Part shown: one piece after another, positions 747-51,442 of the stretch
Numbering within the stretch: the stretch's first letter is position 1
Layout: each line of letters opens with the position of its first letter
Origin: Vicinamibacteria bacterium
GTDB lineage: Bacteria; Acidobacteriota; Vicinamibacteria; Marinacidobacterales; Marinacidobacteraceae
Reading direction: 5' to 3'
Length of the DNA: 64,000 bases
Assembly: GCA_963668695.2 (NCBI GenBank)
Contig: CAXXLQ010000004.1
Location: 1,952,001 to 2,016,000, forward strand
Made by a program: the position numbers and the translations under genes
The notes under the pieces: generated by a model
Databases searched by the model: none
Told to the model about the DNA's origin: nothing
Seen by the model: the letters and a program-made list of their open reading frames with translations, nothing else

Positions 747-1481
747 GCAGCCTGTGGGCAAAGTGGCGTGAGCGCCGAGGCTGGCCAGTTCTCCCGGTGG
801 GGGCGAGGCGCCCGGCTGACAACGCGTGAGGGAGGAATACCTGGTGTATTCCGACCGAAACGCAACGATGAGCGGCGCGCAGCGACGCGGGTAACAGCCG
901 GTGGTGGAACCCACGTGAGCGCCGAGGCCGGCGAGGCGCCCGGCTGACAAGGCGCGTGAGGGAGGAATACCTGGTGTATTTCGACCGAAACGCAACGACG
1001 AGCGGCGCGCAGCGACGCGGTTCAGCCGGGATGGATCGCCGGCCGAACGCCGCGTGGGTTCCGCCACCGGTTGTTTGGCCGGGATGGATCGCCGGCCGAG
1101 CCCCCACCGGGAGAACTGGGCCGCGTGGGTTTCATCACCGGTTGTTTGGCCGGGATGGATCGCCGGCCGAGCCCCCACCGGGAGAACTGGGCCGCGCGGG
1201 TTTCATTACAGGCTGTTTGGCCGGGATGGATCGCCGGCCGAGCCCCACCGGGAGAACTGGGCCGCGCGGGTTTCATTACAGGCTGTTTGGCCGGGATGGA
1301 TCGCCGACCGAGCCCCCACCGGGAGAACTGGGCCGCGCGGGTTTCATTACAGGCTGTTTGGCCGGGATGGATCGCCGACCGAGCCCCCACCGGGAGAACT
1401 GGGCCGCGCGGGTTTCATTACAGGCTGTTCAGCCGGGATGGATCGCCGGCCGAACGCCGCGTGACTTTGTCCACAGGCTGC
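747..1481 (+). mobile_element. Composite MITE-like element (family A) with nested copy and tandem 53/71-bp array
   Basis: TA|GCAGCCTGTGG...CCACAGGCTGC|TA; second left end at about 894; seven GGGATGGATCG units at 1028, 1081, 1152, 1223, 1293, 1364 and 1435. Confidence 0.88.
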
Positions 1482-1494
1482 TAGTCCCTGGGAT

Positions 1495-2937
1495 GTGCGA
1501 CGATATCGAGTAGTAGTTCCCGTCATCTTGGAAGAACCCGGCCTCCTCAGCGTCCTTCCCCCGGTCCTCGCCATCCTGGTCGCCCTGGCTACCCGCCAGG
1601 CGGTGCTCGCCCTGCTCGCCGGCGTTTTGTTCGGGGAGCTGGTTCTCGGTGGCGGGAACGTCTTCTCCGCGCTGGCCGGCACGGTGGCCCGGATCACCGA
1701 CGCCTTTGCGGGCAATCCCGCCATCCTTCTCTTCAGCACGCTGGTGGGGTCCGTGCTGGCGCTGATCGGATTCACCGGCGGGGTTACCGGTTTTGTGAAA
1801 TGGGTCACTTCCCGCCGCCTCGTTACGGGTCCGCGAGGGGCGCAGGCGCTCGCCCTGCTGCTCGGGCTCGGCATCTTCGTCGAGTCGAGCATCACCTGTC
1901 TCGTGAGCGGCACGGTGGCGCGCCCGCTCTTTGACCGCTTCAGGCTTTCCCGGGAGAAACTCGCCTATCTCACCGATTCGACCTCGGCCCCGGTCTGCAT
2001 CCTCCTGCCCATGAACGGCTGGGGGGCGCTCATCATCACCATCCTGGGAACGCTCGGTATCGAGAGCGGGGTCTCCGTGCTGGTGGCGAGCATCCCCCTG
2101 AACTTCTATGCGCTCGCCGCGTTGGGGCTGGCCTTTTTCTTCGGCCTTTCGGGGCGGGATTTCGGCCCCATGGCACGCGCCGAGCACCGGGCCAGGACGA
2201 CCGGACAGGTCATCCGGGAAGGCGCCCGGCCCCTTGTTTCCACGGAAGTCCTCGCACTCCCTCCCGGACCGGGAGTGCCCGATCGGGCCCGGAACATGAT
2301 CGTGCCCCTGGCGGTTCTGCTTGTCATGATCTTCCTCGGGCTGTGGATCACCGGCGAGGGCAACCTGCTCGCCGGGGACGGAGGGACTGCCGTCCTCTGG
2401 GCCGTGCTCGCTGCGGTGATAACGGCGGCCATCCTGGGAATCGCCCAGCGCGTCCTCCGGGTATCCGAAACGGTGGACCTCGTACTGCAGGGAGCCGGCG
2501 GGATGGTGCCGGTCGTCACCGTTCTCCTCGCTTCCTTCGCCATTGCAGCGGTGGCGCGGGATCTTGGGACCGGGGTCTATCTCGCGGGGGTGGCGGAGGC
2601 TGCCATGCCGGCCTGGCTTGTTCCGGCAGTGCTCTTCGTCGTGACGTCGGTGGTCGCGTTTTCCACCGGGACATCGTGGGGGACGTTCGCCATCATGCTC
2701 CCGATTGCGGTTCCGGCTGCCGCCGTGCTCGGCATCGATCTTCCCCTCGTCGTGGGAGCGGTGCTCTCGGGAGGGATCTTCGGCGATCACTGCTCGCCGA
2801 TCTCGGACACCACGATCATCGCCTCCATGGCGTCCGGGTCCGACCTCGTGGACCACGTGAACACTCAGCTTCCGTATGCGCTGCTGGGCGGGGCCGCCGC
2901 TACGGTTCTGTTCGTGGTCGCGGGGCTCCTGTCCTGA
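1495..2937 (+). CDS. Na+/H+ antiporter NhaC family transporter
   Basis: Polytopic membrane protein with SREKLAYLTDSTSAP, FSTGTSWGTFAIMLP and GGIFGDHCSPISDTT motifs; true start may be TTG near 1528. Confidence 0.88.
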   Translation: MRRYRVVVPVILEEPGLLSVLPPVLAILVALATRQAVLALLAGVLFGELVLGGGNVFSALAGTVARITDAFAGNPAILLFSTLVGSVLALIGFTGGVTGFVKWVTSRRLVTGPRGAQALALLLGLGIFVESSITCLVSGTVARPLFDRFRLSREKLAYLTDSTSAPVCILLPMNGWGALIITILGTLGIESGVSVLVASIPLNFYALAALGLAFFFGLSGRDFGPMARAEHRARTTGQVIREGARPLVSTEVLALPPGPGVPDRARNMIVPLAVLLVMIFLGLWITGEGNLLAGDGGTAVLWAVLAAVITAAILGIAQRVLRVSETVDLVLQGAGGMVPVVTVLLASFAIAAVARDLGTGVYLAGVAEAAMPAWLVPAVLFVVTSVVAFSTGTSWGTFAIMLPIAVPAAAVLGIDLPLVVGAVLSGGIFGDHCSPISDTTIIASMASGSDLVDHVNTQLPYALLGGAAATVLFVVAGLLS

Positions 2938-2978
2938 CGCCCGAAATCCACGGGGTCTCCCCCTAGAATTGGGAGCCC

Positions 2979-3842
2979 GTGTCGGAAAACGCCTTACTTG
3001 ACACCCTCGCGGACGAGGCGCGGCCCTTGTCTGACGGGACTCCGGAGCTTGTCCCCCTAGACCCCGACCATCCCGGTTTCCGGGATCCCGTGTATCGGGC
3101 TCGCCGGAACGCCATCGCGAAGCTCGCCTACGAGTACGCCCCGGGAGACCCGGTGCCCACGGTGGCCTACACCGACGAAGAGCACGCCGTCTGGAGCCGC
3201 GTCCGCGAACTCCTCGATCCGCGGCACCGGGACTTCGCCTGCGCCGAGTACCTGGAATGCGTGGATACAGTGGCGCTTGACCCCACCCGGATCCCGCAGC
3301 TCGAGGACGTGAACGCCCGCATCCGGCCGCTGACGGGATTCCGCATGTTCCCGGTTGCCGGTCTGGTCACGGCTCGGGCGTTCCTTTCGTTCCTCGCTCA
3401 CCGGATCTTTCTCGCTACCCAGTACATTCGTCACGCTAGCCGGCCGCTCTACACCCCCGAACCCGACGTCATCCATGAGTTCGTAGGCCACGCCGCCTCC
3501 TTTGCGCACCCGCTCTACGGCCGCCTGAGCGCCCACTTCGGGCGCGCCGCCCGCGCGGCGAGCGACGAGGACGTCGAACGGATCGCCCGCCTTTACTGGT
3601 TCACTCTCGAATTCGGGGCGGCCATCGAAGACGGCATCCCCAAGGCTTACGGCGCGGGGCTTCTTTCCTCGGCCGGTGAGATGGACCGTCTCCGGGAGGC
3701 GGAACTCCGGCGGTTCGACTGTCGGACGATGGCGGACACCCCTTACGACCCCACCGATTTCCAGCCGTTTTATTTCATCGCGCCGAGCTTCGGCGCGATG
3801 CACGAGCAGGTGAGCGACTTCCTGAGGACCTTCTCCGACTGA
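2979..3842 (+). CDS. phhA: Phenylalanine 4-monooxygenase (biopterin-dependent aromatic amino acid hydroxylase)
   Basis: DHPGFRDPVYRARR, TQYIRH, YTPEPDVIHEFVGH, YWFTLEFG and KAYGAGLLSS motifs. Confidence 0.93.
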   Translation: MSENALLDTLADEARPLSDGTPELVPLDPDHPGFRDPVYRARRNAIAKLAYEYAPGDPVPTVAYTDEEHAVWSRVRELLDPRHRDFACAEYLECVDTVALDPTRIPQLEDVNARIRPLTGFRMFPVAGLVTARAFLSFLAHRIFLATQYIRHASRPLYTPEPDVIHEFVGHAASFAHPLYGRLSAHFGRAARAASDEDVERIARLYWFTLEFGAAIEDGIPKAYGAGLLSSAGEMDRLREAELRRFDCRTMADTPYDPTDFQPFYFIAPSFGAMHEQVSDFLRTFSD

Positions 3843-3905
3843 TCGGCTCGGCGGTCGAGCCTCCACCGGGAGAACGGGGCCGCGCGACCTGTTCAGATGC
3901 TGCTA

Positions 3906-4620
3906 ACAGCCTGTGGTGGAACCCGGGTGAGCGCCGAGGTTGGCCAGTTCTCCCGGTGGGGGCGAGGCCCAGTTCTCCCGGTGGGGCCAGTCCTCCCGGT
4001 GGGGGCCCGGCTGACAAGGCGCGTGAGGGAGGAATACCGGGTGTATTCCGACCGAAACGCAACGATGAGCGGCGCGAAGCGACGCGGTTCAGCCGGGATG
4101 GATCGCCGGCCGAGCCCCCACCGGGAGAACTGGGCCGCGTGGGTTTCACTGCCGGCTGTTCAGCCGGGATGGATCGCCGGCCGAGCCCCCACCGGGAGAA
4201 CTGGGCCGCGCGGGTTTCACTACCGGCTGTTCGGCCGGGATGGATCGCCGGCCGCACGCCGCGTGGGTTTCACTGCCGGCTGTTCAGCCGGGATGGATCG
4301 CCAGCCGCACGCCGCGTGGGTTTCACTGCCGGCGGTTCAGCCGGGATGGATCGCCGGCCGAGCCCCCACCGGGAGAACTGGGCCGCGTGGGTTTCACTGC
4401 CGGCTGTTTGGCCGGGATGGATCGCCGGCCGAGCCCCCACCGGGAGAACTGGGCCGCGTGGGTTTCACTGCCGGCTGTTTGGCCGGGATGGATCGCCGGC
4501 CGAGCCCCCACCGGGAGAACTGGGCCGCGTGGGTTTCGCTACCGGTTGTTTGGCGGGATGGATCGCCGCCGAGCCGCCCCACCGGGAGAACTGGGCCGCC
4601 TGGGTTTCGCCACAGGCTGT
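3906..4620 (+). mobile_element. MITE-like element (family A) with tandem 53/71-bp array
   Basis: TA|ACAGCCTGTGG...CCACAGGCTGT|TA; eight right-end units at 4095, 4166, 4237, 4290, 4343, 4414, 4485 and 4555; right end overlaps the stop codon of the PP2C gene. Confidence 0.88.
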
Positions 4621-5879
4621 TAAGCGCGGATGACCAGCACCGTCTGGTCGTCGTCGGGGGCACCGCCCCGAAACCGCCGGACGCCCTTGAGGACGCTGTC
4701 ACAGACCTCGGCGGCGGGAGTTCCGAGATCCCGCTCCCGGCGGAGCAGTTCACCGAGGCGCTCCCGGCCGAAGAGTTCGTCCTCGCGATTCGAGGCCTCG
4801 GTGATTCCGTCGGTGTAGAAGGCGAGCAGGTCTCCGTCGCCCAACTGGATCACCTGCTCGAAGTACCGGGGCGACGGGAAGAGGCCCACCGGCAGGCCGC
4901 CGGCGTGGATCAACTCGATCTGGCCGCTCGCCCGGACCAGCACGGGTGGCGGGTGTCCCGCGTTGATGTGGATCAACCGGCGGAGGGGAACATCCAGCAG
5001 CCCGAAGAACAAGGTTGCGTAGCGGGTCTCTCCCACCGTCTCGTAGAGCAACTGGTTGGTGCGCCCCACAATCACCCGGAGCGTGAGGCTCGACTTGGCG
5101 AGCGAAAAGACCGAGGCGCGCAGCGCGGCCACCAGCAGCGCTGCGGGGATGCCCTTCCCCGCCACGTCGGCCATCGCGATCCCCCAGCGATCTTCTCCCA
5201 GTGAAATCAGGTCGTAGTAGTCGCCGCCCACCTGCGAACACGGTTCATAGACCGCCGCGATCTCCAACCCCTCGAGGATCGGACATTCGTGCGGGAGCAG
5301 GTCGTGCAACACCCGTCCCGCAACTTCCATCTCGGAAATGAGTTCCCGGCCCTCGACCGCCTTCTCGTAGAACAGAATGCGTTCGACAGCGGGCGCCACT
5401 CCGAGGGAGTACGAGCGCAGCATCCGAAGGTCCGCCTGGCCGAACGCGGCGGGATCCGGGGACTCGGCGACCACCGCCCCGAGGCGCCGGCCGCCGGCCC
5501 CGAGGAGCGGCGCCGCGATGGCGGAAGCCGACCCCGGGTTCAGGTCGGGATCGGAGGCCGCCGCGGCCGTTACCGCAAGCAACTCGGGCCGTCCGCTGTC
5601 GAGCACCTTCCGCGCGATTCCGCCGGAGGGGAGTTGCCCGGCGTCGGATCCCGAAACATCAGGCACCAGGCTGTCGCGCCCGCGCGCCCGCCGGCAAATC
5701 ACGGTCTGCCCATCGAGTGCGACGGAGCAGAGGGTTGCCCGGTCGCAGCGCGGGAGCACGTGGCGGAGCCCGGCGAGGATGGTGTCCGCCGTGCGTCCGA
5801 TTTCGAGGCTGCGCCCGATCTCCTGGAACACCTCGAGCAGGTGCTCGGGGCCGGTCTCCGGCGGGTCTGCTCCGGTCAT
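4620..5879 (-). CDS. GAF + SpoIIE (PP2C-type, RsbU-like) protein phosphatase
   Basis: VGGDYYD, DVAGKG, INAGHPPP, FYTDGITE and DDQT motifs; N-terminal GAF-like region. Confidence 0.9.
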   Translation of the reverse strand: MTGADPPETGPEHLLEVFQEIGRSLEIGRTADTILAGLRHVLPRCDRATLCSVALDGQTVICRRARGRDSLVPDVSGSDAGQLPSGGIARKVLDSGRPELLAVTAAAASDPDLNPGSASAIAAPLLGAGGRRLGAVVAESPDPAAFGQADLRMLRSYSLGVAPAVERILFYEKAVEGRELISEMEVAGRVLHDLLPHECPILEGLEIAAVYEPCSQVGGDYYDLISLGEDRWGIAMADVAGKGIPAALLVAALRASVFSLAKSSLTLRVIVGRTNQLLYETVGETRYATLFFGLLDVPLRRLIHINAGHPPPVLVRASGQIELIHAGGLPVGLFPSPRYFEQVIQLGDGDLLAFYTDGITEASNREDELFGRERLGELLRRERDLGTPAAEVCDSVLKGVRRFRGGAPDDDQTVLVIRA

Positions 5880-5899
5880 GGGTGGCGGCGCTGACCTTA

Positions 5900-6080
5900 G
5901 CAGTCTGTGGTGAAACCCAGGCGGCGTTCGAGCGGCGATCCATCCCGCCTGAACCGCGCCGCTTTGCGGCGCTCGGCGTTGCGTTTCGGTCGAAATACAC
6001 CAGGTATTCCTCCCTTACGCGCCTTGTCAGGCGGGCGCCTCCCCGCTCTCGGCGCTCACCCGGGTTTCACCACCGACTGC
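5900..6080 (-). mobile_element. MITE-like element (family A), inverted, lacking the 18-mer inserts
   Basis: GCAGTCTGTGG...CCACCGACTGC ends; body is the reverse complement of the family consensus. Confidence 0.85.
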
Positions 6081-6099
6081 GAGCGCCAACCGGGTTTGG

Positions 6100-6768: not shown

Positions 6769-6996
6769 GGAGAATTCCTTTCCGGCACGGAAGCCGGAGC
6801 GCTCATTGTAGGGAACGCGGGCTGGTGGCTGCCGCGTGCTGCGCTTCCGCTACTGGTGGCGCGATCCGGGACCGCGGGCCAGTCTCCTCCCGGTGGGGGC
6901 CTTCAGACCGGCATCGCGCGCCGGAGACGGGCGAGACGGACACTGTCCACGCTGGGGGCGCTGGATCGATGCTCTTTCTCCGTCTGCGTCCTCGCG

Positions 6997-8085: not shown

Positions 8086-8137
8086 GGGGTTCTCCCCGGG
8101 GGAATGGCGGCCAAGAATACCCGCCGGCTCAGGGCTT

Positions 8138-13579: not shown

Positions 13580-13712
13580 GCAGCCTGTGGATGAAGTGGC
13601 GAGAGCGCCGAGAGCGCCAGTTCTCCCGGTGGGCGGGCGCTTCAGCCGGGATGGATCGCCGCTCGAGCCCCCACCGGGAGAACTGGGCCGCGTGACTTTG
13701 TCCACAGGCTGC
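13580..13712 (+). mobile_element. Short internally deleted MITE-like element (family A)
   Basis: TA|GCAGCCTGTGGATGAAGT...ACTTTGTCCACAGGCTGC|TA; right end completes the TAG of the CoA-binding gene. Confidence 0.85.
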
Positions 13713-17560: not shown

Positions 17561-17969
17561 CTTCCGAGGTCCGGCAGAACTCGAGCGCCGCGGAGTTGAT
17601 GCACCAGCGCTGCCCGGTCTCCTCGGGCGGGCCGTCCGGGAACACGTGGCCGAGGTGGGCGTCGCATCGTGCGCAGGTCGCTTCCGTGCGCACCATTCCG
17701 AGGCTCCGGTCCACCGAGGTCGCGATCGTTTCCTGTTCCGCAGGCCGGGTGAAGCTGGGCCAGCCGCTCCCGGAGTCGTACTTGTCTGCTGAAGAGAAGA
17801 GGAGGGCGCCACAGCACACGCAGCGGTATTCCCCGGCCGCGTGGTTCTGATAGTGAGCCCCGCTAGAGGGTGGTTCGGTGGCGCCCTGACGGGTGACGGC
17901 GAACTGTTCCGGGGTCAGCCGGGCCCGCCATTCGGCGTTGGTCTTTTGGGTCTTTTCGTTGTTGCTCAT
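17544..17969 (-). CDS. msrB: Peptide-methionine (R)-S-oxide reductase
   Basis: GATEPP, YRCVCC, KYDSGSGWPSF, CARCDAHLGHVFPDGP and RWCINS motifs. Confidence 0.96.
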   Translation of the reverse strand: MSNNEKTQKTNAEWRARLTPEQFAVTRQGATEPPSSGAHYQNHAAGEYRCVCCGALLFSSADKYDSGSGWPSFTRPAEQETIATSVDRSLGMVRTEATCARCDAHLGHVFPDGPPEETGQRWCINSAALEFCRTSEGGDDR

Positions 17970-18169
17970 ACGGTATCGGGGGGTCTATTCGGCGTTGGAT
18001 CGCTTGGTGTTTGCTGGGTTCGCGATGGTTTTTGTCCTCGGCAGCCGGTGGCGTGAATCTGCCAGCGTCAACTCGCGGCGCGGAGCGCCGCAGGGGTGGG
18101 GTGCGGGGAGGAGTTTCCCCTCCCCGCGAAAAAGGGTGACGCGAAGTGCCCAGCGCTTCGCGCCACCAT

Positions 18170-18467
18170 CAGCCGGTGGGCAGAGTGGCGAGAGCGGCCA
18201 GTCCTCCCGGTGGGGGCGAGGCGCCCGGCTGACAAGGCGCGCGAGGGAGGAGCCCCCACCGGGAGAACTGGCCCGGGTGTATTTCGACCGAAGCGCAACG
18301 ATGAGCCGCGCGGAGCGGGGCAGTTCAGCCGGGATGCATCGCCGCTCGCTTCCGGAGCGGGGCGCGGGCACCGCGGAGACCCCGGAGCGGAAGGGACGGG
18401 GGACGGGGCCACTCGACCCCCATCCCTTCTGGCTCGGGAATGCCACGGGACTCTGTCTACAGGCTGC
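18170..18467 (+). mobile_element. MITE-like element, long subfamily A2
   Basis: Family-A left half plus extra GACCCCGGAGCGGAAGGGACGGGGG... module; ends CAGCCGGTGG...CTACAGGCTGC. Confidence 0.75.
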
Positions 18468-18562
18468 TTGCCGGTGGGGAAAGCGCCCGGCATCCCGGAC
18501 CGCCGGCTCTGTCGTGTCCTCCTTGCTTGCGTGATGCGGGGCGCTTTGTCCATGGGCGGTCA

Positions 18563-18798
18563 ACAGCCTGTGGTGGAGCCCGGGTGAGCGCCGAGAGCGG
18601 CCAGTCCTCCCGGTGGGGGCGAGGCGCCCGGCTGACAAGGCGCGTGAGGGAGGAGCCCCCACCGGGAGAACTGGCCCGAGTGTATTTCGACCGAAACGCA
18701 ACGCAGAGCGCCGCAAAGCGCCAGTTCTCCCGGTGGGGGGGCGGTTCAGGCGGGATGGATCGCCGCTCGAACGCCGCGTGGGTTTCACCACAGGCTGT
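18563..18798 (+). mobile_element. MITE-like element (family A)
   Basis: CA|ACAGCCTGTGG...CCACAGGCTGT|TA; right end overlaps the TAA of the small membrane gene. Confidence 0.85.
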
Positions 18799-18977
18799 TA
18801 ATCGGCGAACCAGGCGCGGCCGATGATGAGGAGCCAGTAGAGAATCAGCGAAACCACGAGAGCTCGTCCGAACTCCCGAAGTTTGTCCAGGAACCGTGCC
18901 TTGCGGGGTCCCGGCACGAGGGCGTAGATCGCGGTCGCGATGGTGGCGACGATGGCGAGGTTGCGAAACCGGATCAT
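18798..18977 (-). CDS. Small two-TM membrane protein (59 aa)
   Basis: MIRFRNLAIVATIATAIYALVPG...RALVVSLILYWLLIIGRAWFAD; two hydrophobic helices. Confidence 0.6.
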   Translation of the reverse strand: MIRFRNLAIVATIATAIYALVPGPRKARFLDKLREFGRALVVSLILYWLLIIGRAWFAD

Positions 18978-19195
18978 CGCCCGGGAGTCTGTCCGAAAAG
19001 AGGGATGGGCGCCCGCCCCATCCATGTTTCCGGACAGGCTCCCGGCCCATGATAGTGGCGCCCGCCCGGCAGCCGACCGATCCTCTCAATGGTTCGGTCG
19101 GACAAGTAGGCGGGCCGACCGGCGGGCCGACCGGCGGGCCGGTCAACTGGCCGGCTGTTGCGGGGACCGCGGTCCTGGTTCGCCTGGCGCTCGTA

Positions 19196-19574
19196 ACAGC
19201 CGGTGGTGGAACCCGGGTGAGCGCCGAGGCCGGCCAGTTCTCCCGGTGGGGGCGAGGCGCCCGGCTGACAAGGCGCGTGAGGGAGGAGCCCCCACCGGGA
19301 GAACTGGCCCGAGTGCATTTCGACCGAAACGCAACGATGAGCGGCGCGTAGCGACGCGGTTCAGCCGGGATGGATCGCCGGCCGAGCCCCCACCGGGAGA
19401 ACTGGGCCGCGCGGGTTCCATTGCAGGCTGTTCAGCCGGGATGGATCGCCGGCCGTTTCCGGAGCGGGGCGCAAGCACCGCGTAGACCCCGGAGCGGAAG
19501 GGACGGGGGCGGGACCACCCGACCCCCTTCCCTTCTTGGCTCGGGAACGCCGCCTGGGTTTCACCACCGGCTGT
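19196..19574 (+). mobile_element. MITE-like element, long subfamily A2 with duplicated right-end unit
   Basis: TA|ACAGCCGGTGG...CCACCGGCTGT|TA. Confidence 0.85.
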
Positions 19575-19751
19575 TAGCCCCGCCGCCGTCGTCGGCTCTT
19601 CGCCGGAGGGGGTGCTCCACCACTCGCAGAGCCGGACTGCTTCCCGCGCCGCGGCGGCGGCAGCGTCGCGGGACGATTCTCGAAGGTTATGATCCTGCCC
19701 GCCTCAGCGGTGGGTTTCGACCAGCGGGAGCCGCTGATCCGGGAGGAATTG

Positions 19752-20624
19752 ATGCCAGACGACGGAGTGAGGACGGAAGATATTGAGGAGGACGACGAGT
19801 GGGGAGGGGAACCCGACGAGGAGGCGCCGTCCGAAGCTGACCAGGCGGATTCCGCGTCGAGCGGGAAGCGGCGTGCCACGATTCTGGCAGCCATCGTGGC
19901 CCTTCTGATCGCGGCCGGAGCCGGTTATTGGTATTTCATTTATGGCCCGGGCAAGCCACCCGAGCCTCCGCCGCCCGTCGTGGAGGCGGAACCCGAACCC
20001 GTTGTCGAAGAGGAGCCGGAGCCGGAACTTCCTGCTCTCGACGCGAGCGATCCGTTCCTCCGGTCGCTGTTCGCGGCGATTACCGGGAACCCCGACGTCC
20101 TTGCGTGGCTGCTTGGCGACGATCTGGCGCGGCGCATTGCCGTGGCCACCGACAATGTCGCCGACGGGATTTCGCCGCGCCGGGCGCTCGCCGGGTTGTC
20201 TCCGGCGGATCCGTTTCGGGTTGTGGGTGAAGCAGAGGAACTCCACGTCCACCCGGCCGCGTTCGCCCGCTACGACTCGGTCGCGACCGCGCTCGAGGGC
20301 GCCGACAGTCCCGGGATGGCCCGGGTGATCCGCGAAGCACTGCCGATTCTGGATGCCGCCTACGCCGAGTTGGGCCGTCCCGACCGGACGTTCGTCGAGG
20401 CGCTGCTCGCGGCGCTTGACCGGCTCGCGGCCGTTCCAGTGCCCGAAACGCCCGTGCTGCTGGACGAACAGATCATGCGCTACGAATACCGCGACCCGGC
20501 GTTCGAGGAGCTTGACGACGCGAGCAAACACCTGCTCCGGTTTGGCCCCGACAACCAGGCCAAGGTCCAGGAAGCGGCCCGTGGCCTCGCCGAGCGGCTC
20601 CGAGCGGGCGGGGCGCCCTTTTAG
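19752..20624 (+). CDS. DUF3014-like membrane-anchored protein
   Basis: TM helix, Pro/Glu linker, then LPALDASD, ARYD, AYAELG, YEYRDP and KHLLRFGPDN motifs; start set at ATG behind GGAGG. Confidence 0.8.
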   Translation: MPDDGVRTEDIEEDDEWGGEPDEEAPSEADQADSASSGKRRATILAAIVALLIAAGAGYWYFIYGPGKPPEPPPPVVEAEPEPVVEEEPEPELPALDASDPFLRSLFAAITGNPDVLAWLLGDDLARRIAVATDNVADGISPRRALAGLSPADPFRVVGEAEELHVHPAAFARYDSVATALEGADSPGMARVIREALPILDAAYAELGRPDRTFVEALLAALDRLAAVPVPETPVLLDEQIMRYEYRDPAFEELDDASKHLLRFGPDNQAKVQEAARGLAERLRAGGAPF

Positions 20625-20721
20625 CACCCCGTGGAAAAAGCACCCCGCACGATTCCCCAAGGCAGTACGCGCTCCGATTCCGGCGATTTGTGCGCGTGCG
20701 GGGCGCTTTCCCCACGGGCAA

Positions 20722-21064
20722 GCAGCCTGTAGACAAAGTCACGTGGCATTCCCGAGCCAGAAGGGATGGGGGTCGAGTGGCCCCGTCCCCCGTCCCTTCC
20801 GCTCCGGGGTCTCCGCGGTGCTGGCGCCCCGCTCCGGAAGCGAGCGGCGATGCATCCCGGCTGGCCCCCACCGGGAGAACTGGCCGCCCCGCTTCGCGTG
20901 GCTCATCGTTGCGCTTCGGTCGAAATACACTCGGGCCAGTTCTCCCGGTGGGGGCTCCTCCCTCGCGCGCCTTGTCAGCCGGGCCCCCACCGGGAGGACT
21001 GGCCCCACCGGGAGAACTGGGCCTCAACGCTCTCGGTGCTCACGCGACTTTGTCCACAGGCTGC
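20722..21064 (-). mobile_element. MITE-like element, long subfamily A2, inverted
   Basis: Reverse-complement match to 18170-18467; ends GCAGCCTGTAGAC...TCCACAGGCTGC. Confidence 0.8.
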
Positions 21065-21219
21065 TCATCGAGCGAATCGCTCCGCGATCCGCACCATCGT
21101 CTTTCGCGGGGAGGGAAAACCCCTCCCCCGAGGCGCTGCGCGCCCCGAATGGAGCGCGCCAGAGTTTGGCCACCGCCTGCTAACCAGAGCGCGCCGTTCA
21201 TCGGTTCCAGTCTTATCCC

Positions 21220-21489
21220 GTGCCGGCCGTTCATTTCACGCCGAACCTTCGGCGGCACCTCGTCGTAGAGAGCGCCAGAGTCGAGGGTCAAACCGTGTCC
21301 GAAGCGCTTACCCGCGTGTTTCGCGATAACCCCGGCCTTCGTTCCTACGTGCTCGACGATCAGGGGCGTCTTCGCACCCATGTGGTCATCTATGTGGACG
21401 GGCGTCCCGTCCGAGACCGGAATGCGCTCGCCGATGCGGTCGGAGAGAACGCGGAGATCCACGTCATGCAGGCCCTGTCGGGCGGGTAA
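21220..21489 (+). CDS. MoaD/ThiS-family ubiquitin-like protein
   Basis: 89 aa beta-grasp pattern (LRSYVLDDQGRLRTHV) ending in QALSGG. Confidence 0.9.
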   Translation: MPAVHFTPNLRRHLVVESARVEGQTVSEALTRVFRDNPGLRSYVLDDQGRLRTHVVIYVDGRPVRDRNALADAVGENAEIHVMQALSGG

Positions 21490-28275: not shown

Positions 28276-28528
28276 GCAGCCTGTGGTGGAACCCGGGTGA
28301 GCGCCGAGAGCGGGGAGGCCCAGTTCTCCCGGTGGGGCCAGTCCTCCCGGTGGGGGCCCGGCTGACAAGGCGCGTGAGGGAGGAATACCCAGTGTATTTC
28401 GACCGAAACGCAACGCAGAGCGCCGCAAAGCGCCAGTTCTCCCGGTGGGGGGGCGGTTCAGGCGGGATGCATCGCCGCTCGAGCCCCCACCGGGAGAACT
28501 GGGCCGCCTGGGTTTCACCACAGGCTGC
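28276..28528 (+). mobile_element. MITE-like element (family A), 253 bp
   Basis: TA|GCAGCCTGTGG...CCACAGGCTGC|TA; near-identical to 30088-30340. Confidence 0.88.
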
Positions 28529-30088: not shown

Positions 30089-30340
30089 CAGCCTGTGGTG
30101 GAACCCGGGTGAGCGCCGAGAGCGGGGAGGCCCAGTTCTCCCGGTGGGGCCAGTCCTCCCGGTGGGGGCCCGGCTGACAAGGCGCGTGAGGGAGGAATAC
30201 CTGGTGTATTTCGACCGAAACGCAACGCAGAGCGCCGCAAAGCGCCAGTTCTCCCGGTGGGGGGGCGGTTCAGGCGGGATGGATCGCCGCTCGAGCCCCC
30301 ACCGGGAGAACTGGGCCGCGTGGGTTTCACCACAGGCTGC
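30088..30340 (+). mobile_element. MITE-like element (family A), 253 bp, inserted in the gltX stop codon
   Basis: TA|GCAGCC...GGCTGC|TA; its first base completes TAG. Confidence 0.88.
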
Positions 30341-38435: not shown

Positions 38436-38634
38436 ACCGCCTATGAACAAGGTCACGCGGCGTTCGGCCGGCGATGCATCCCGGCTGAACCGCGACGCTT
38501 CACGTCGCTCATCGTTGCGCTTCGGTCGAAATACATCAGGTATTCCTCCCTCGCGCGCCTTGTCAACCGGACCCCCACCGGGAGAACTGGGCCTCACCGG
38601 CCTCGGCACTCACGCGACCTCGTCCATAGGCGGT
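38436..38634 (-). mobile_element. MITE-like element (family A variant with ACCGCCTATG/CATAGGCGGT ends)
   Basis: Body is the reverse complement of family A; both termini carry matching substitutions. Confidence 0.8.
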
Positions 38635-41297: not shown

Positions 41298-41528
41298 AGG
41301 AGCGCCGGCCAGTTCTCCCGGTGGGGGCCTCCAGACCGGCATCGCGGCCGCAGGCCGCGAGACTCCCACCGCTACCTTGGCCCATAGCTGGGACCCCATA
41401 CGAGGACGGCGAAACGCCCCTTGGGTTCGTATCCGCCATCCCCATTGTCCGCAGCGACATGCGGGGAATGAAGTACGGGAGTTTCACTCCCCTGCGGGGA
41501 GCGATGCCGGTGTGAACACCGGCGCTCC
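41298..41528. repeat. REPIN-like element (family B): inverted pair of REP hairpins
   Basis: GGAGCGCCGG[18-mer]..CCAGACCGGCATCGC ... GCGATGCCGGTGTGAACACCGGCGCTCC; related to 55186-55470 and 62923-63520. Confidence 0.7.
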
Positions 41529-41530
41529 TA

Positions 41531-41766
41531 ACAGCCTGTGGTGAAACCCGGGTGAGCGCCGAGGTTGGCCAGTTCTCCCGGTGGGGGCGAGGCCCAGTTC
41601 TCCCGGTGGGGCCAGTCCTCCCGGTGGGGGCCCGGCTGACAAGGCGCGTGAGGGAGGAATACCTGGTGTATTTCGACCGAAACGCAACGCAGAACGGAGC
41701 GAAGCGGAGTGGTTCAGCCGGGATGGATCGCCAGCCGAACGCCGCTTGGGTTTTACCACAGGCTGT
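41531..41766 (+). mobile_element. MITE-like element (family A) inserted within a family-B repeat region
   Basis: TA|ACAGCCTGTGG...CCACAGGCTGT|TA; the family-B module GCGACAGCGGAAG continues at about 41773. Confidence 0.88.
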
Positions 41767-44000: not shown

Positions 44001-44125
44001 GCGCCGGAAAGGCTAGCGTGGTGGGTGCTCAGAGAGACTCTTGGGCCACCCGAAAACGGGAAGAGGCCACGTCGGGTCGGATCCAACGCGCAGCGAGAGC
44101 GTTGAAGAACAGGGATAATCCGCCC

Positions 44126-44359
44126 ATGCCCATGACGAGAGCCGATGAGAAGCGGCGGGTCACCCTTCCGGACGTGACGCCGGGAGACGTGTTCGAGATC
44201 CGCAGTCCGGGGAACGGGGATTTCTTGCTGGTGCGTCAGCCCTCGCCGGCATCGCGGGCGCGCATGAGCCGGGCCGAGTGCCTCGACGCGATGGCGAAGA
44301 ACCCGCTCAAAATGCGCCTCAACTGGCAGGAGTTGCGCCAACTCACGCGCGAGCCATGA
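44126..44359 (+). CDS. Antitoxin-like small protein (AbrB/SpoVT-like)
   Basis: RADEKRRVTLP N-terminus, ..WQELRQLTREP; ATGA overlap with the PIN gene. Confidence 0.65.
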   Translation: MPMTRADEKRRVTLPDVTPGDVFEIRSPGNGDFLLVRQPSPASRARMSRAECLDAMAKNPLKMRLNWQELRQLTREP

Positions 44360-44992
44360 TCCTGTTGGACAGCAACGTCCTCATCTACGCTTCCGAACCC
44401 GGCGCCCGCTACCGCTCTTGGGCGACCGATGTCATCGTGGACGCGGTCTCCGCTGCGGGAGCGGCTGTTAACAGCCTGTGGTGAAACTCACGTGAACGCC
44501 GAGGTCGGTGAGGCCCAGTTCTCCCGGTGGGGGTCCGTCCGACGAGGCGCGTGAGGGAGGAATACCGGGTGTATTTCGACTGAAACGCAACGAAGAACGG
44601 AGCGAAGCGGAGTGGTTCGGGCGGGATGCATCGCCGGCCGAGCCCCCACCGGGAGAACTGGGCCGCGTGGGTTTTGCCACAGGCTGTTCACGCCGTCAGT
44701 CTCGCCGAGATCTGCGTCGGTGCCGAGGATCCAGATCTGGTGGTTGCCGAAATCCGTGCGTGGGGGATCGAAATCCTTGACATCCCTGCTTCCGCAGCCG
44801 TGCTTTCGGCTCGTGCATACCGGGCCTACCGCGAGCGCCGGCGCCGCCAGTCGGCGCTCGATGCCCCGGCCACACCCCTCCCTGACTTTTTTCATCGGCG
44901 CCCACGCTGAAGTGATGGGCTACTCGCTGGCGACGGCCGACACGTCCCGATTCGCGACCTACTTTCCCCAAGTGCCCCTGATCACGCCGTGA
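44356..44992 (+). pseudogene. vapC: VapC/PIN toxin disrupted by MITE insertion and a +1 frameshift
   Basis: MILLDSNVLIY...AAVN | MITE 44471-44687 | AVSLAEICVG...PLPDFF (T6 run at 44887-44892) IGAHAEVMGYSLATADTSRFATYFPQVPLITP. Confidence 0.88.
44471..44687 (+). mobile_element. MITE-like element (family A) inside vapC
   Basis: TA|ACAGCCTGTGG...CCACAGGCTGT|TC. Confidence 0.9.
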
Positions 44993-45148
44993 TCGAGGTG
45001 CCGCGGTCCGCCCCGACCTCCATCGGGCCTTCAGTTTCCACGGCCCCAGCGACCACGACGCTATCCGTGCTCAGCGCCGAGCGGACTACGCGGAGAGATC
45101 GGGAAGCTTGGTGGTCCCGCATGGAGTGGTTCGGGGTCCGTTGCCCCC

Positions 45149-46831: not shown

Positions 46832-46880
46832 GAGGGGAACCTCCGGACAGGCAATCCTACGTGGAGCGCGAGCGCCGGGT

Positions 46881-48629
46881 TCAGGAACGTCCGCTTCGTT
46901 TCATGATGCGGGCCCAGGTGTCCCGGAGGCTCACCGTCCGGTTGAGGACCGGAGAGTCCGCCCGGTGATCCACCGGATCGGCGACGAAGTAGCCGAGCCG
47001 TTCCAACTGGATCCGCGCTCCGGGCTCGAGGTTCCGAAGCGCCGGCTCGACCTGCGCCGGAATGACCCGCATTGAGTCCGGGTTCAGGTCGCCGGCGAAA
47101 TCACCGTCCCGTCCCGGTTCTTCCACCCGGAAAAGCCGGTCGTAGAGCCGGACCGTGGCCGGGACCGCGTGCCGCGCGGAGACCCAGTGGAGGGTGGCGC
47201 GGACGCGCCTGCCGTCGGGGGCGTCTCCGCCGCGGCTGCCCGGATCCAGCCGGCAACGGATCTCCTGCACCCGCCCGTTCGCGTCCTTGGAGAAGCCGGT
47301 GCAGGTCACGAGGAAGGCGTAGCGGAGCCGCACTTCGCGACCGGGGGCGAGCCGGTAGAACTTTCGCGGCGGGTCTTCCAGGAAATCGGCCCGCTCGATC
47401 AGCAACTCCCGGGAAAACGGCACCGGCCGGGTTCCCGCCGCCGGATCCTCCGGGTTGTTCACCGCCTCGAAGATCTCCTCTCCGTCGTCCGGGTAGTTCT
47501 CGACCACGAGCCGCACCGGGTCGAGGACGCCCATGAAGCGGGGGCTCGTCCGGTTGAGTTCCTCGCGCACGGCGTGTTCGAGGAGGGCGATGTCCACGGT
47601 GCTGTCGCGCTTCGCCACCCCGACGCGCTCGCAGAAGGTCCGGATCGCTCCCGGCGGCACCCCCCGGCGCCGCAGCCCGGCGATGGTCGGCATCCTCGGG
47701 TCGTCCCACCCCGAGACGAATCCCTCCGCAACGAGGCGCAACAACCGGCGCTTGCTGAGCACGGTATAGCTCACGTTGAGCCTCGCGAACTCGATCTGGC
47801 GCGGGACGAACTTCGCCTGGCTCTCCGCCACGCACCAGTCGTAGAGCGGCCGGTGATCCTCGAACTCGAGGGTGCATAGCGAGTGCGTGATTCCCTCGAT
47901 CGAGTCGGAGAGCGCGTGGGCGAAGTCGTACATCGGGTAGATGCACCAGTCGTCACCCGTCCGGTGGTGGCGCAGCCGCCGGATCCGGTAGAGCGTCGGA
48001 TCGCGCAGGTTCAGGTTGGGGGAGGCCATGTCGATCCGGGCCCGCAGCACGTGCGCCCCGTCGGGAAACTCGCCCGCCCGCATGCGCCGGAACAGGTCGA
48101 GGTTCTCTTCGACGGTACGGCTGCGGTAGGGGCTCTCGCTGCCTGGGGACTCGAGCGTCCCGCGGGTTCGCCGGACCTCCTCGGCACTGAGGCTGTCCAC
48201 GTAGGCCTTGCCGCGCCGGATCAGCGTTTCCGCGAACTCGTAGAGGCGGTCGAAGTAGTCGGAGGCGAACTTTCGCGGACCTTCCCACTGGAATCCGAGC
48301 CACCGAACGTCCTCGGCGATCGACTCGACGTAGAGCGTTTCCTCCTTTGCCGGGTTCGTGTCGTCGTAGCGGAGGTTGCAGGTGCCCCCGTTCTCCGCCG
48401 CCACCCCGAAGTTCAGGACGATGGACTTTGCATGCCCGACGTGGAGGAAGCCGTTGGGCTCCGGCGGGAAACGCGTGCCCACCCGGCCGGCGTGCTTGCC
48501 CGCTGCGCGGTCGGCGGCGATGAAGGCCCGGATGAAGTCGGGCGGAGAGGGCGCCGGTAAGGGTGCCGGTACGGGCCCTGGCCCGCTCACCGTTTCGCCG
48601 TCGTTCTCCTGAGTCCTCCCGGTCGTCAT
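46881..48629 (-). CDS. glnS: Glutamine--tRNA ligase
   Basis: [54 protein letters not shown] and QLERLGYF motifs. Confidence 0.96.
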
Positions 48630-49474
48630 CGCACCTCGGGCCCTCCGCGCCGATCGTCCCGCACGAAGCGGTCGCGCGCGGGCATCTTGATGCGGGGCAG
48701 CGACTCCGCGTCGAGCGCGTCTCCGGGCTCGAGAATCCCGTTCAACTGAAGGATGAACGCCGTCAGGGCGTACACGTCATCCGGAGGCAGCGTGCCGGGC
48801 GCGGCCTGCGGCATCGCGCGCCGGATGTAGTCGAAGAGCGTTGTCGCGTATGGCCAATAGCTGCCTACCGTGATGCGCCAGCTCCGGTCTTCCGAGAACG
48901 GGAACCGGTCACCGGGTACCCGGCCGGCCAGCGCTTCGAAGTCGGCGCCTTCGCCCCGGGCCCCGTGGCACTGCACGCACTGCAGCCGGTAAAGGGTCTC
49001 CCCGCGCTCCACCGAACCCCGCCCCGGAGGCAGCCCCTCGCCATCGGGGCCGATGTCGATGTCCCAGGCCGCGATCCGTTCCGGACTCGCCGCTTCCCCG
49101 AAGCCGAAGTCCGGGAGGTCGCTGATGTCTCCCAGGCTCCGCTCCCTTGCCTGCCGGAGCGCTTCGAGTTCCGCCTCGTTCAGCAGACCGGGCATCCCCG
49201 GATGGAGATCAGGCCGGGGCGGGGTGGCGGGCTCGGTGTCTCGCGCGGTGGAATCGGGGCCGAGCGCGGCATCGGAAGGGCTGGCCGGGGCCGCTGAGGT
49301 CTCGTCCGTGGACTCGGGGGAACAGGCAACCAGCAGGAGAAGGACTGCGGGAAGAACCCATCCGGGGGACGATCCGGGCGACGATCCGGGCGACGACCCG
49401 GACGAATCGCTGACAGCCGGTGGTGAAACCCACGCGGCCCAGTTCTCCCGGTGGGGGCTCGGCCGGCGATCCAT
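48626..49474 (-). CDS. Mono-heme cytochrome c lipoprotein (SorB/SoxD-like partner of SoxC)
   Basis: LLLLVAC lipobox, [20 protein letters not shown] and [21 protein letters not shown] motifs. Start ambiguous: ATG 49474 inside the MITE, or TTG 49906. Confidence 0.85.
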
Positions 49475-49903
49475 CCCGGCCAAACAGCCGGTGATGAAAC
49501 CCACGCGGCCCAGTTCTCCCGGTGGGGGCTCGGCCGGCGATCCATCCCGGCTGAACCGCGTCGCTGCGCGCCGCTCATCGTTGCGTTTCGGTCGCAATAC
49601 ACCCGGGCCAGTTCTCCCGGTGGGGGCTCCTCCCTCACGCGCCTTGTCAGCCGGGCCCCCACCGGGAGAACTGGCCCCACCGGGAGAACTGGGCCTCCCC
49701 GGCCTCGGCGCTCCCGCGGGTTCCACCACCGGCTGTTGACCGTATCGCTTCGCGCCGCTCATCGTTGCGTTTCGGTCGCAACACACCCGGGCCAGTTCTC
49801 CCGGTGGGGGCTCCTCCCTCACGCGCCTTGTCAGCCGGCCGCCTCGCCCCCACCGGGAGAACTGGCCAGCCTCGGCGCTCACGCCGGTTCCACCACAGAC
49901 TGT
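49413..49903 (-). mobile_element. Nested MITE-like elements (complete 49413-49736 plus partial 49739-49903)
   Basis: TG|ACAGCCGGTGG...CCACCGGCTGT|TG inner copy; the outer copy's end overlaps the soxC TGA. Confidence 0.85.
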
Positions 49904-51162
49904 CAACCCGCAAAGAAAACCCGCCCGTCGGATTCCACGCGCCACGGACGGATCTGGTTGAAGTGGTAGCGCGTGTAGGACCCGCGGGCCTGGAGCAGCG
50001 CTTCCCGGGTCGGCTGGACGTATCCGGTCTCGTCCGTGGCCCGGCTCATCAGGGTGGCGCCGCGGCCGTCCCACTTCCAGAGCTTGCGGAAACGGACGTG
50101 GCACTTCGGAAGCACCGGCTCCTGAAGTTCGGCGTCCTCCCAACTGTCGCCACCGTCGGTCGAGATCTCCACCCGGGTGATCCGGCCTCTGCCGGTCCAG
50201 GCGATACCCCGGATTTCCCACCAGCCGGGTCCGTCCAGTCGGGCAGGGAACGTCGGGAAGGTGATCAGCGACTTCGCGTCCAGCGTGAAGCTGAACATCC
50301 GCGCCTTCTCCCCGGGCAGGGGGTCGGTGTATTTGGAGGTCTCTTCGCGCGTCATGAACGGCCGGTCCGAAAGCTCGAGCCGGCGCAGCCACTTCACGCT
50401 CGCGTTCCCTTCCCATCCCGGCAGGAAGAGCCGGACCGGATATCCCTGCTCCGGCCGCAGCGGTTCTCCGTTCTGGGCATAGGCGACGATGGCGTCGTCC
50501 CACGCTTTCTCCATCGGAACCGAGCGGGTCATCACCGCGGCGTCCATCGCCTCCGCCAGGAACCAGGTGGCTTCGGGACGGGCTCCCACCTCCCGGAACA
50601 GAAGCTTCAGCGGCACTCCGGTCCACTCGCTGGTGCTGGTGAGGCCGTCCATCTCCTGCGGGCTCATGTCCCGGCGGCGGCCCTGGTTCTGGAACGCCGT
50701 GCCCCCGTTCCCGGAGCATTCGAGGAAGCGCAGCCGCGACTCGGCAGGAAATCGCTTCAGGTCCGCCAGCCGGAAGGTCGTCGGGCGCTCCACCATCCCG
50801 TGGATCACCAGCTCGTAGCGCTCCGGATCGATGTTGGGAATGCCGCCGTGGTGGCGTTCGAAGTGCAGGTCGGCGGGGGTCATGACGCCCTGGAGATATT
50901 GGAGCGGGGTGCGGGAGGAAGAGGAAGGCTCCAGAACCCGAACCATCCGCTCGGGTGTTTCGAACGCCGAGCGCTGCCCCACCGGGCTGGGCACCCGGCC
51001 CTGCATCTTGGTGGGGTCGTCCGGCGCCCGCGGCCGGCGCTTCGGCGCCTCCGCCGGCTGGGCGGCAGCCAGCGCTCCGGCGCCGACCGTGGCGGCCCCG
51101 ACGACTCCTGCGAGCACCTCACGGCGCGAGGGAAGCCCGCGACTCTCCCGATTGTTGGCCAT
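49903..51162 (-). CDS. soxC: Sulfite dehydrogenase molybdopterin subunit (Tat-exported)
   Basis: SRREVL Tat motif, TPADLHFERHH, FLECSGNG, SEWTGV and QNGEPLRPEQGYPVRLFLPGWEGNASVKW motifs. Confidence 0.9.
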   Translation of the reverse strand: MANNRESRGLPSRREVLAGVVGAATVGAGALAAAQPAEAPKRRPRAPDDPTKMQGRVPSPVGQRSAFETPERMVRVLEPSSSSRTPLQYLQGVMTPADLHFERHHGGIPNIDPERYELVIHGMVERPTTFRLADLKRFPAESRLRFLECSGNGGTAFQNQGRRRDMSPQEMDGLTSTSEWTGVPLKLLFREVGARPEATWFLAEAMDAAVMTRSVPMEKAWDDAIVAYAQNGEPLRPEQGYPVRLFLPGWEGNASVKWLRRLELSDRPFMTREETSKYTDPLPGEKARMFSFTLDAKSLITFPTFPARLDGPGWWEIRGIAWTGRGRITRVEISTDGGDSWEDAELQEPVLPKCHVRFRKLWKWDGRGATLMSRATDETGYVQPTREALLQARGSYTRYHFNQIRPWRVESDGRVFFAG

Positions 51163-51242
51163 GGCCCGGATTATGGCGGATTCCCGGTTAGCCTGATTGT
51201 GCTCCAGCCGAATGGCGAGCCGCGCCGGCGATCTGTCGGTCA

Positions 51243-51442
51243 ACAGTCCGTGGTGGAACCCGGGTGAGCGCCGAGAGCGGCCAGTTCTCCCGGTGGGGGC
51301 GAGGCGCCCGGCTGACAAGGCGCGTGAGGGAGGAATACCGGGTGTATTTCGACCGAAACGCAACGCAGAGCGCCGCAATGCGGCGCGGTTCAGGCGGGAT
51401 GCCTCGCCGCTCGAACGCCGCCTGGGTTTCCCCACGGGCTGT
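51243..51442 (+). mobile_element. MITE-like element (family A)
   Basis: CA|ACAGTCCGTGG...CCACGGGCTGT|TA. Confidence 0.85.

Follow-up and report, generated by a model that had tools for sequence, protein, structure and literature searches.

We analysed a 64-kb window (G000:C4:1952001-2016000) of a sponge-associated acidobacterial genome (assembly G000, 4.10 Mb, 67.5% G+C), in which a single 18-nt word, CCAGTYCTCCCGGTGGGG, hereafter the unit, recurs 51 times as an exact match, on both strands, with T (44 copies) or C (7 copies) at position 6. No match to this word occurred in any of 100 dinucleotide-preserving shuffles. The original prediction for this DNA had described roughly 50 copies with C or T at position 6, at coordinates that fit ours, and had placed all of them inside repeats, which holds for all 51 copies in the window but not for the whole genome, where unique coding DNA contains at least one copy. 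Reading the 18 bases confirmed its further statement that none of the six reading frames contains a stop codon, and found self-complementarity at CCA..TGG only.

The main host repeat is MITE-A, a miniature inverted-repeat transposable element (MITE) that carries units at discrete sites. The reference copy (893..1076, plus strand, 184 nt) has no site filled and lies within a composite (785..1402) with a forward unit at 785 (site S39) and reverse units at 1102, 1173, 1243, 1314 and 1385, the latter five sitting in 70-71-nt tandem right-end modules (S156 type). Another copy, extended by a right-end tandem array (3944..4594), has S39 filled at 3944, a double unit at S45 (3969 and 3987, T form then C form) and reverse units at 4116, 4187, 4364, 4435, 4506 and 4577, with two modules at ~4240-4340 empty. 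A short derivative (13617..13686) combines a forward copy matching 17 of the 18 positions (13617) with an exact reverse unit (13669). At 18198..18271, a C-form S39 unit (18198, +) and a reverse S76 unit (18254) lie in a MITE that the sister species G001 lacks altogether at the orthologous position, and the same is true of the copy at 18601..18738 (MITE limits ~18563-18806; C-form S39 at 18601, S76 at 18657 (-), S122 at 18721 (+)), for which G001 retains the empty site gcggtc/aatcgg (strokes here and below mark junctions). The copy at 19234..19405 (S39 at 19234, S76 at 19290 (-), S156 at 19388 (-)) has an orthologue in G001 with S39 empty and a double at S45 instead, and the reverse-oriented copy at 20866..21020 (20866 (-), 20936 (+), and a reverse double at 20985 and 21003) has its first unit displaced by 6 nt in G001 (S122 versus S128).

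Two further copies flank gltX, one upstream (28320..28502; S45 double at 28320 and 28338, S122 at 28433, S156 at 28485 (-)) and one downstream (30132..30314; S45 double at 30132 and 30150, S122 at 30245, S156 at 30297 (-)), and both are absent in G001 and in the related genome G004. The remainder comprise a single S45 unit with an AC (= GT) flank in a reverse-oriented MITE-A (38573..38590, minus strand); a forward copy at 41569..41629 (S39 at 41569, S45 double at 41594 and 41612); a copy inside an otherwise open reading frame (44515..44661, MITE limits ~44468-44695; S45 single at 44515, S156 at 44644 (-)); a cluster of seven units at 49439..49865, delineated from motif positions only (forward at 49439, 49510, 49608 and 49792; reverse at 49657 and 49675, a T+T double, and at 49848); and a single forward S39 unit at 51281..51298 (MITE limits ~51243-51445). 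The continuous small open reading frame (ORF) at 44360-44990 that bears a MITE-A lies downstream of another small ORF, possibly forming a toxin-antitoxin pair.

Units also occur in family B, a palindrome resembling repetitive extragenic palindromic (REP) elements (GGAGCGCCGG T CTTCAGACCGGC...), at the CCGG/T step of either arm. In the window, one family-B palindrome is filled (41309..41326, +; GGAGCGCCGG/unit/GCCTCCAGACCGGC), two are empty (55187..55235, +, GGAGCGCCGG T CTTCAGACCGGCATCGCGGCC...; and 62924..62975, +), and one carries a 20-nt variant of the unit, CCAGTCTCCTCCCGGTGGGG (6878..6898, +). A decayed reverse unit (CTCCACCGGGAGAACGGGG) lies at 3860-3879, outside the MITE-A block and directly after the stop codon of a biopterin-dependent hydroxylase gene. 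The pairs of empty and filled alleles from which the original prediction argued are all present: GAGGCCGG/CGAGG, empty at about 924 and filled at 19234 (S39, net gain 19 nt); GAGGC/GCCCGG with its head-to-tail doubles at 3969/3987, 28320/28338, 30132/30150 and 41594/41612 (S45); GGAGGAATAC with reverse copies at 18254, 18657 and 19290 (S76); CCGAACGCCG with a reverse copy at 1102 and elsewhere (S156); and the sites filled at 18721, 28433 and 30245 (S122). Its account of family B stands for the filled copy at 41309 and the empty ones at 55187 and 62924, but not for 6878, where the variant is not an exact unit.

Across the whole 4.1-Mb genome, exact copies number 1,444 (723 on the forward and 721 on the reverse strand), with no replication-strand bias seen along contig C4. 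The exact copies divide into 1,288 of the T form and 156 of the C form, and a further 122 and 65 copies carry one and two mismatches, respectively. Among nine other 18-nt segments of MITE-A taken as controls, eight were far more variable than the unit, with broad mismatch spectra, and the ninth (CCCGGCTGACAAGGCGCG) was fairly conserved. The copies form 1,299 runs, namely 1,161 singles, 134 doubles and 4 longer arrays. After deletion of all units from the genome, a search with the empty repeat of window positions 893-1076 returned 803 high-scoring segment pairs with ~650-fold coverage, which gives ~650 copies of MITE-A. This repeat harbours 1,219 of the 1,444 units, at sites S39+ (199 units), S45+ (372, doubles included), S76- (292), S122+ (57) and S156- (264) and at the minor sites S28+, S36-, S128+ and S140-. 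Folded as single-stranded DNA, the 184-nt reference copy forms one long hairpin (-67.7 kcal/mol, z -7.7) in which S28 mirrors S156 and S45 mirrors S140, so that each pair represents the same site in two homologous arms; in the fold of the copy at 19234..19405, the S39 and S156 units pair, and inverted pairs form stems of 18-20 bp.

The 225 units outside MITE-A matches lie in part in additional MITE-A right-end modules, and most of the rest lie in family B. Only 10 of the 1,299 runs have unique 40-nt flanks on both sides and 20 have flanks with at most two matches, and most of these near-unique runs look like diverged repeat copies; two of them considered as further unique-site insertions (C4:1898242 and C4:2418788) were set aside because they resemble diverged family-B or related repeats. 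Gene calls were made by a crude choice of ORFs based on third-position G+C content that covered 60% of C4, and a tally of intergenic context, in which 203 of the 499 MITE blocks classified counted as "far" from any called gene, was too noisy and was not used.

Comparison of the empty and filled alleles showed that the insertions are precise but not pure. The net gain of 18 or 19 nt noted in the original prediction holds, but its clean insertions do not, because target bases are replaced. On the top strand, AAT/A at an empty S76 becomes AGC[unit]C, and GAAC at S156 becomes GAGC[unit]. Read in the orientation of the unit, S156 changes from GGC/GT/TCGG to GGC/unit+GC/TCGG, S128 has unit+GC in place of TT, and S76 changes from CCGG/TAT/TCC to CCGG/G+unit+GC/TCC, while S39 and family B lose a single base to the insert and end up 19 nt longer. 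Since more than 18 nt differs between alleles, the inserted entity is best described as the unit plus GC replacing 1-3 bases, and on the aligned junctions we take the effective inserted entity to be a 20-mer, CCAGTTCTCCCGGTGGGG followed by GC. Several of the targets are short palindromes, among them GGC/GCC at S45, CCCG/CG/CGGG in a gene of the AcrB family (see below) and CCGG/ at S39, S76 and family B; in the related genome G009, the site in mnhE, which has no unit there, reads GC/GT/CCGG.

S45 occurs in three states in G000. Empty S45 (GGC/GCCCGG) is followed by GC in 312 copies and by GT in 2, single units are followed by GT in 69 of 75 copies and by GC in 6, and doubles are followed by GC, with 77 of T+C and 51 of T+T composition. 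The ratio of GT to GC after single units is looser elsewhere (28:15 in G004, 18:3 in G008 and 9:6 in G001). Simple slippage was rejected by hand, in that removing any 18-nt window from a single or double S45 never yields the empty sequence, and quasi-palindrome correction was rejected because the flanks of S39/S45 and of S76 are not complementary. Genome-wide, the CCGG to the left of the S39 unit is often CTGG, TTGG or TCGG (for example at window positions 785, 3944 and 41569), the pattern expected of deamination of methylated CCGG, which hints at a CCGG methylase and at hypermutable single-nucleotide polymorphisms (SNPs) in the repeats.

Occupancy of the sites was analysed in 336 full-length MITE-A copies (family mean pairwise identity 91%), using crudely delimited "bodies" of ~115 columns. 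Empty copies number 88 of the 336, and nearly every combination of the five main sites was seen, with phi between site pairs of 0.02-0.38. Occupancy was linked to sequence only at the 1-3 junction bases (Cramer's V 0.97-0.99 at S76 and 0.98 at S156), and, at 4-12 nt from a site, filled and empty copies shared SNP backgrounds; S122 was the only site bound to one MITE subfamily. Twelve copies with identical bodies displayed eight different state combinations, and nearest neighbours of at least 97% identity agreed in state at 0.58-0.66, against 0.51-0.56 by chance. At the preferred sites, units are gained far more often than single bases are substituted.

The same turnover is visible between strains and species. 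The assembly contains near-duplicate stretches (C1, 144 kb; C3, 31 kb; and C4:9354-148038 versus C4:3775642-3913787) at 99.3-99.7% identity, which differ by many 1-nt indels and look like either haplotigs from strains assembled together or the overlap of a contig end, fitting the 9.3% "contamination" figure. Among 82 units in these haplotigs (C1, C3 and both ends of C4), four differ in state (one S45 single versus double, two S45 empty versus single and one S76 filled versus empty), each with the usual junction signature, and SNPs are not raised within MITEs (35/7,910, versus 1,650/250,109 outside). In a comparison of 400 kb with G001, ~95% identical in syntenic blocks, 12 units were common to both, three sites were precisely filled in G000 only and two in G001 only, and two further differences were positional (S39 versus an S45 double, and the 6-nt displacement). 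At C4:353543, one orthologous MITE exists in three states, without a unit in G001, with a single one in haplotig C1 and with a double in C4.

Units also reach protein-coding genes. An intact gene for a 1,051-residue protein of the AcrB/AcrD/AcrF family (G000:C4:393184-396339; ACR_tran, 802 bits) carries a unit mid-gene and in frame, adding the residues PHRENW, in both G000 haplotigs and in G001; at this position the orthologous genes in G004, G008, G010 and G018 are shorter by exactly 18 nt (...RRRHGGEPG-PHRENW-RDAAIAG... in G000 versus ...RRRHGGEP-V-RDAAVAG... in G004). The target, as preserved in G008, is the palindrome CCCG/CG/CGGG, whose central CG is replaced by unit+GC. With four outgroups in agreement, the alignments indicate that the AcrB unit is a polarised gain in unique DNA, and, as no paralogous template is present, homologous conversion cannot account for it. 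A second coding copy lies in mnhE (PF01899; G000:C4:2611232-2611777, minus strand), where a C-form unit makes up codons 7-12 and encodes PVLPVG. It is exact in G000 and G008, which are of equal length; in G001 and G004 it contains a 12-nt internal duplication; in G010 it has diverged while the length matches that of G000; and the gene of G009 is exactly six codons shorter at this position. Judged from these alignments, the mnhE copy looks like an old insertion, with N-termini too variable for certainty. A length of six codons and the lack of a stop in every frame mean that the unit can survive inside genes.

The unit was found in 21 of 41 related genomes, including all 15 other genomes of the genus and five of nine genomes from six further genera of the family, and it was missing from all 16 genomes that represent two other families in the order; a sample of 400 genomes across the phylum contained none, and a viral contig collection held no exact 20-mer. 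Among the genomes searched, the unit is therefore known from one Vicinamibacteria-like family only. The relatives of the GlnRS of G000 come from MAGs named as Acidobacteriota or Vicinamibacteria, and contig C1, searched against a plasmid collection, had just two short Ralstonia matches. Counts of a MITE-A marker (CCGGCTGACAAGGCGCG, at most one mismatch) and of the unit were 630 and 1,444 in G000, 426 and 675 in G004, 375 and 588 in G008, 292 and 630 in G001, 38 and 88 in G009, and 22 and 67 in G014, compared with 93 and 11 in G010, 51 and 8 in G007, 31 and 8 in G012, and 52 and 1 in G020. The last four genomes are rich in the MITE but poor in units, so MITE-A does not need the unit. Most unit-like copies in G010 are decayed (4 exact 20-mers versus 33 with 1-3 mismatches). 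The sole exact copy in G020 occupies S76 in a MITE of that genome's own type, with the AAT/A to AGC[unit]C junction, and the one other unit-like copy found there has two mismatches and lies at another site. The unit is exactly conserved across five genera in which the MITE flanks diverge, and in G018 and G019 its sites in the homologous MITEs differ in part. One unit of G018 is nested within another, directly after the inner CCCGG. At C1:758400-758900 and C1:61900-62500 of this genome, where such nesting occurs once, units belong to family-B-like repeats arranged in tandem, with modules of 44 nt and 92 nt.

MITE-A itself is a genuine mobile element that spreads separately from the unit. It is ~185 nt long, has long terminal inverted repeats and is matched by clean empty sites in G001. 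A 1.65-kb IS5-like insertion sequence (IS) encoding a DDE_Tnp_1 transposase of ~460 aa (G000:C4:1825962-1827543 and C4:800298-801218) has termini like those of MITE-A (CTAGCAGCCTG); the ends of the IS (CTAGGAGCCTGCGCCGCAG) share their first 11 bases with the MITE-A ends. This IS is present in G000 and multi-copy in G001, G004, G008 and G018, and on the strength of the shared termini it is likely to be the mobiliser of MITE-A; its family (PF01609) had no match in G009 or G014. Nothing unit-like was detected in the IS at up to four mismatches. A search for an autonomous partner between MITE-A ends returned 15 end pairs spaced 0.5-6 kb apart, and the ORFs scanned, from eight of 10 such loci retrieved, were ordinary genes with no transposase domain.

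Searches for a responsible enzyme or a parent element bore on three proposals of the original prediction. Templating by a reverse transcriptase does not agree with the distribution of PF00078, which matched three of 26 genomes (G001, G017 and G022) and had no match in five unit-bearing genomes (G000, G004, G008, G018 and G019). A link to IS110 fails for G019, which has 56 units and no match to PF01548; this family matched 11 of the 26 genomes, was absent also from G011, and is present in 10 copies in G014, which has 67 units only. An origin as the excision scar of a larger element found no support in the window, where two of 46 prefix matches and two of 53 suffix matches of the unit were orphan and none paired, so that no parent element was seen there. 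The REP-associated tyrosine transposase (RAYT/Y1) family PF01797 had no match in G000, with control genomes matching. No Rfam family reached its gathering score in the window, and an origin from a tRNA or attachment site was rejected, the best match of the 20-mer to 58 ARAGORN genes being 12 nt with one mismatch.

Taken together, the behaviour of the unit is that of a mobile DNA unit, among the smallest known, and the core explanation towards which we lean is that the 18-mer is a very small, independently mobile DNA module. New copies arrive with sharp, constant ends, replacing 1-3 target bases for a net gain of 18 or 19 nt. They prefer the five main sites and the mirror sites in the arms of the MITE-A hairpin, together with the CCGG/T step of family B, and enter unique DNA rarely. 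An enzyme acting in trans on DNA would recognise the unit or its ends, with existing DNA copies rather than RNA as the source, and the constancy of the ends whatever the flanks of donor and target suggests such an enzyme. The more specific proposal, that a DNA-based machinery, neither reverse transcriptase nor RAYT, recognises a fixed sequence of 20 nt, as duplex or oligonucleotide, and inserts it at the cost of about two bases into DNA that is structured or palindromic, we advance only tentatively. The main mechanistic alternative would be copy-choice from a template where hairpin or palindromic DNA is broken, and states are probably mixed further by short-patch exchange among the numerous copies of the MITE.

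The strongest competitor to an independently mobile unit, although we judge it rather improbable as the main driver, is shuffling of alleles by very short-patch ectopic gene conversion among MITE-A copies, each filled site having arisen once or a few times through an illegitimate event, with concerted evolution keeping the unit identical. Several observations weigh against our preferred explanation, and some of them are just what conversion would produce. Each site has its own fixed junction signature, as exchange of alleles between MITE copies would yield; the S45 doubles are fixed T+C or T+T haplotypes, S122 is tied to one MITE subfamily, and units decay where copies are few, as in G010. In addition, 99% of copies lie in repeats, whereas a free inserter with short targets should enter unique DNA more often, so that homology or structure must matter. 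The number of units in a copy did not increase with our proxy for its youth (Spearman 0.04), which led us to reject the idea that more units mark a younger copy. Polarity is fixed by outgroups at the AcrB locus only, as an attempt to polarise the differences between G000 and G001 with G004 and G008 found the same MITE missing at those loci in both; no responsible enzyme was found in the searches described above; and the gene calls and MITE bodies are crude, with many 1-nt indels between haplotigs. Conversion, however, requires tracts that end within ~4-12 nt of the unit on both sides, and it predicts neither the lack of a SNP excess in MITEs between haplotigs that differ at four unit states, nor the AcrB gain, which follows the same junction rule with no paralogous template, nor the filled S76 of G020, whose genome offered only a two-mismatch copy at a different site. 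We favour insertion activity because of the sharp and constant ends, the gain at a unique site, the clean haplotig differences, and the activity in particular lineages with decay elsewhere. We think that both processes act: rare non-homologous insertions create sites, including those in genes, and a fast enzyme-driven or conversion-like process fills the structured ones.

Exact conservation across five genera despite diverging MITE flanks, and the 18-20 bp stems that inverted pairs form in the MITE hairpin, would also suit a selected recognition sequence for a host or element protein, such as a nucleoid, regulatory or transposition factor, spread as a by-product of MITE amplification. We regard this as unlikely, given that MITE-A thrives nearly without units in G010, G007, G012 and G020, where the units decay, that the IS sharing its termini contains nothing like the unit, and that presence or absence is near random among identical MITE bodies; moreover, selection leaves unexplained how identical 20-mers originate as indels. 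The case that the original prediction itself named as fatal to recurrent entry, one fully filled ancestral MITE followed by precise deletions, does not fit the data and has very little probability left. In G018 and G019, the homologous MITEs do already have S39 and S140 occupied and hold a degenerate unit at S156, as a static relic would, yet deleting 18 nt does not restore the empty sequence at S76, S156 or single S45, the AcrB insert is a gain, one unit of G018 lies within another, a single orthologous MITE shows three states, and units are scarce in some species with abundant MITE-A. The recurrent, independent entry into repeats that the original prediction proposed is instead borne out by near-unlinked occupancy, the differences between haplotigs and between species, the MITE-rich but unit-poor genomes and the AcrB gain.

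An adapter, primer or assembly error, the other case that was to undo the prediction, is so improbable as to be practically negligible. We found nothing in its favour, except insofar as the assembly does hold haplotig duplicates with many 1-nt indels. The unit occurs in the separate assemblies of the 21 related genomes, and of the 24 public runs listed, 20, drawn from 7 studies, contain the stretch at window positions 17800-21400. In three DNA runs from three studies, contigs cover the repeats at a summed word depth of 10^3-10^5, compared with ~10-240 in adjacent unique DNA. Contigs of an RNA run (X15) lie on the repeats as well, and such contigs cannot show transcription of any given copy.

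Among known systems, the closest precedent, by our comparison, appears to be the small dispersed repeats (SDR1-8, especially SDR5) of Nostocaceae cyanobacteria. They were reportedly described by Elhai et al. in 2008 (Genome Res 18:1484). To our knowledge, no enzyme or mechanism for the movement of ~20-nt DNA words in bacteria has emerged since that description. In the passages of later papers that cite them, SDRs are dispersed units of ~20 nt (21-27 nt), sometimes in tandem and possibly mobile; SDR5 inserts precisely between the third and fourth base of the palindrome HIP1, and none is reported there from HIP1-rich cyanobacteria outside Nostocaceae (PMC5861425, PMC4390886, PMC2884548, PMC3116915). 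Measured against these citing descriptions, the unit is of similar scale (18 nt, or 20 nt with its constant GC, just under their range) and shares dispersed and tandem occurrence, mobility at orthologous places and precise short sites, and several of its targets are short palindromes, as HIP1 is for SDR5, although the unit has no single common target. It differs from the SDRs so described in belonging to a different phylum, in its length (18-20 nt versus 21-27 nt), in not being itself a palindrome and in replacing 1-3 target bases, as well as in its documented multi-state sites, strain-level turnover and in-frame insertion into a conserved protein. As the citing passages portray them, SDRs are thus a close enough precedent that the original prediction's view of a unit matching no described class has to be modified.

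By contrast, the unit fails the defining tests for REP/REPIN elements, MITEs, retroelement-templated addition and uptake sequences. With REP/REPIN-RAYT systems and the bacterial interspersed mosaic elements (BIMEs) of enterobacteria, as we know them and as passages of PMC3116915 present them, it shares hundreds to thousands of short intergenic copies, hairpins formed by inverted pairs and modular mosaics. Unlike these, it is not an imperfect palindrome, occurs also singly and in direct tandem, and is accompanied by no Y1/RAYT gene in G000. In contrast to MITEs, it has no terminal inverted repeats, makes no target duplication, removes target bases and is ten times below the usual lower size limit, whereas MITE-A, its host, has the terminal inverted repeats and size of a MITE. 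The mobile GC clusters of yeast mitochondria and the Rickettsia palindromic elements are palindromic sequences of 30-150 nt in organelles or obligate intracellular bacteria; like the unit, they are short and G+C-rich and nest or insert in frame, and their sequences are unrelated to it. DNA uptake sequences (DUS) and uptake signal sequences (USS) arise by point mutation and recombination, in coding and non-coding DNA, and not as indels. We rejected this identity, as the unit is an 18-19-nt indel at fixed sites that is nearly always found in repeats. A literature search on MITEs in the context of sponges and Acidobacteria returned nothing relevant.

If a DNA-based machinery does move it, the unit would be the smallest actively mobile DNA element characterised, and one whose "safe" sequence can lengthen proteins, as with PHRENW in the AcrB transporter and PVLPVG in MnhE. 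The finding shows a way for proteins to acquire 6-residue inserts. The lineage is tractable, offering one sharp unit, few fixed targets, complete genomes of sister species with 8 to 1,444 copies, strain haplotigs that show changes in progress, and one polarised gain in a conserved gene. For annotation, hypervariable 18-nt indels in the repeats of such genomes should be read as biological.

Apart from the unit and its hosts, one further repeat stands out in the genome. A stretch of 23 kb (G000:C4:2803874-2826790), free of units, matches itself at offsets of ~350 nt with 90-94% identity, and is either an extremely long tandem array or a giant gene made of repeats.

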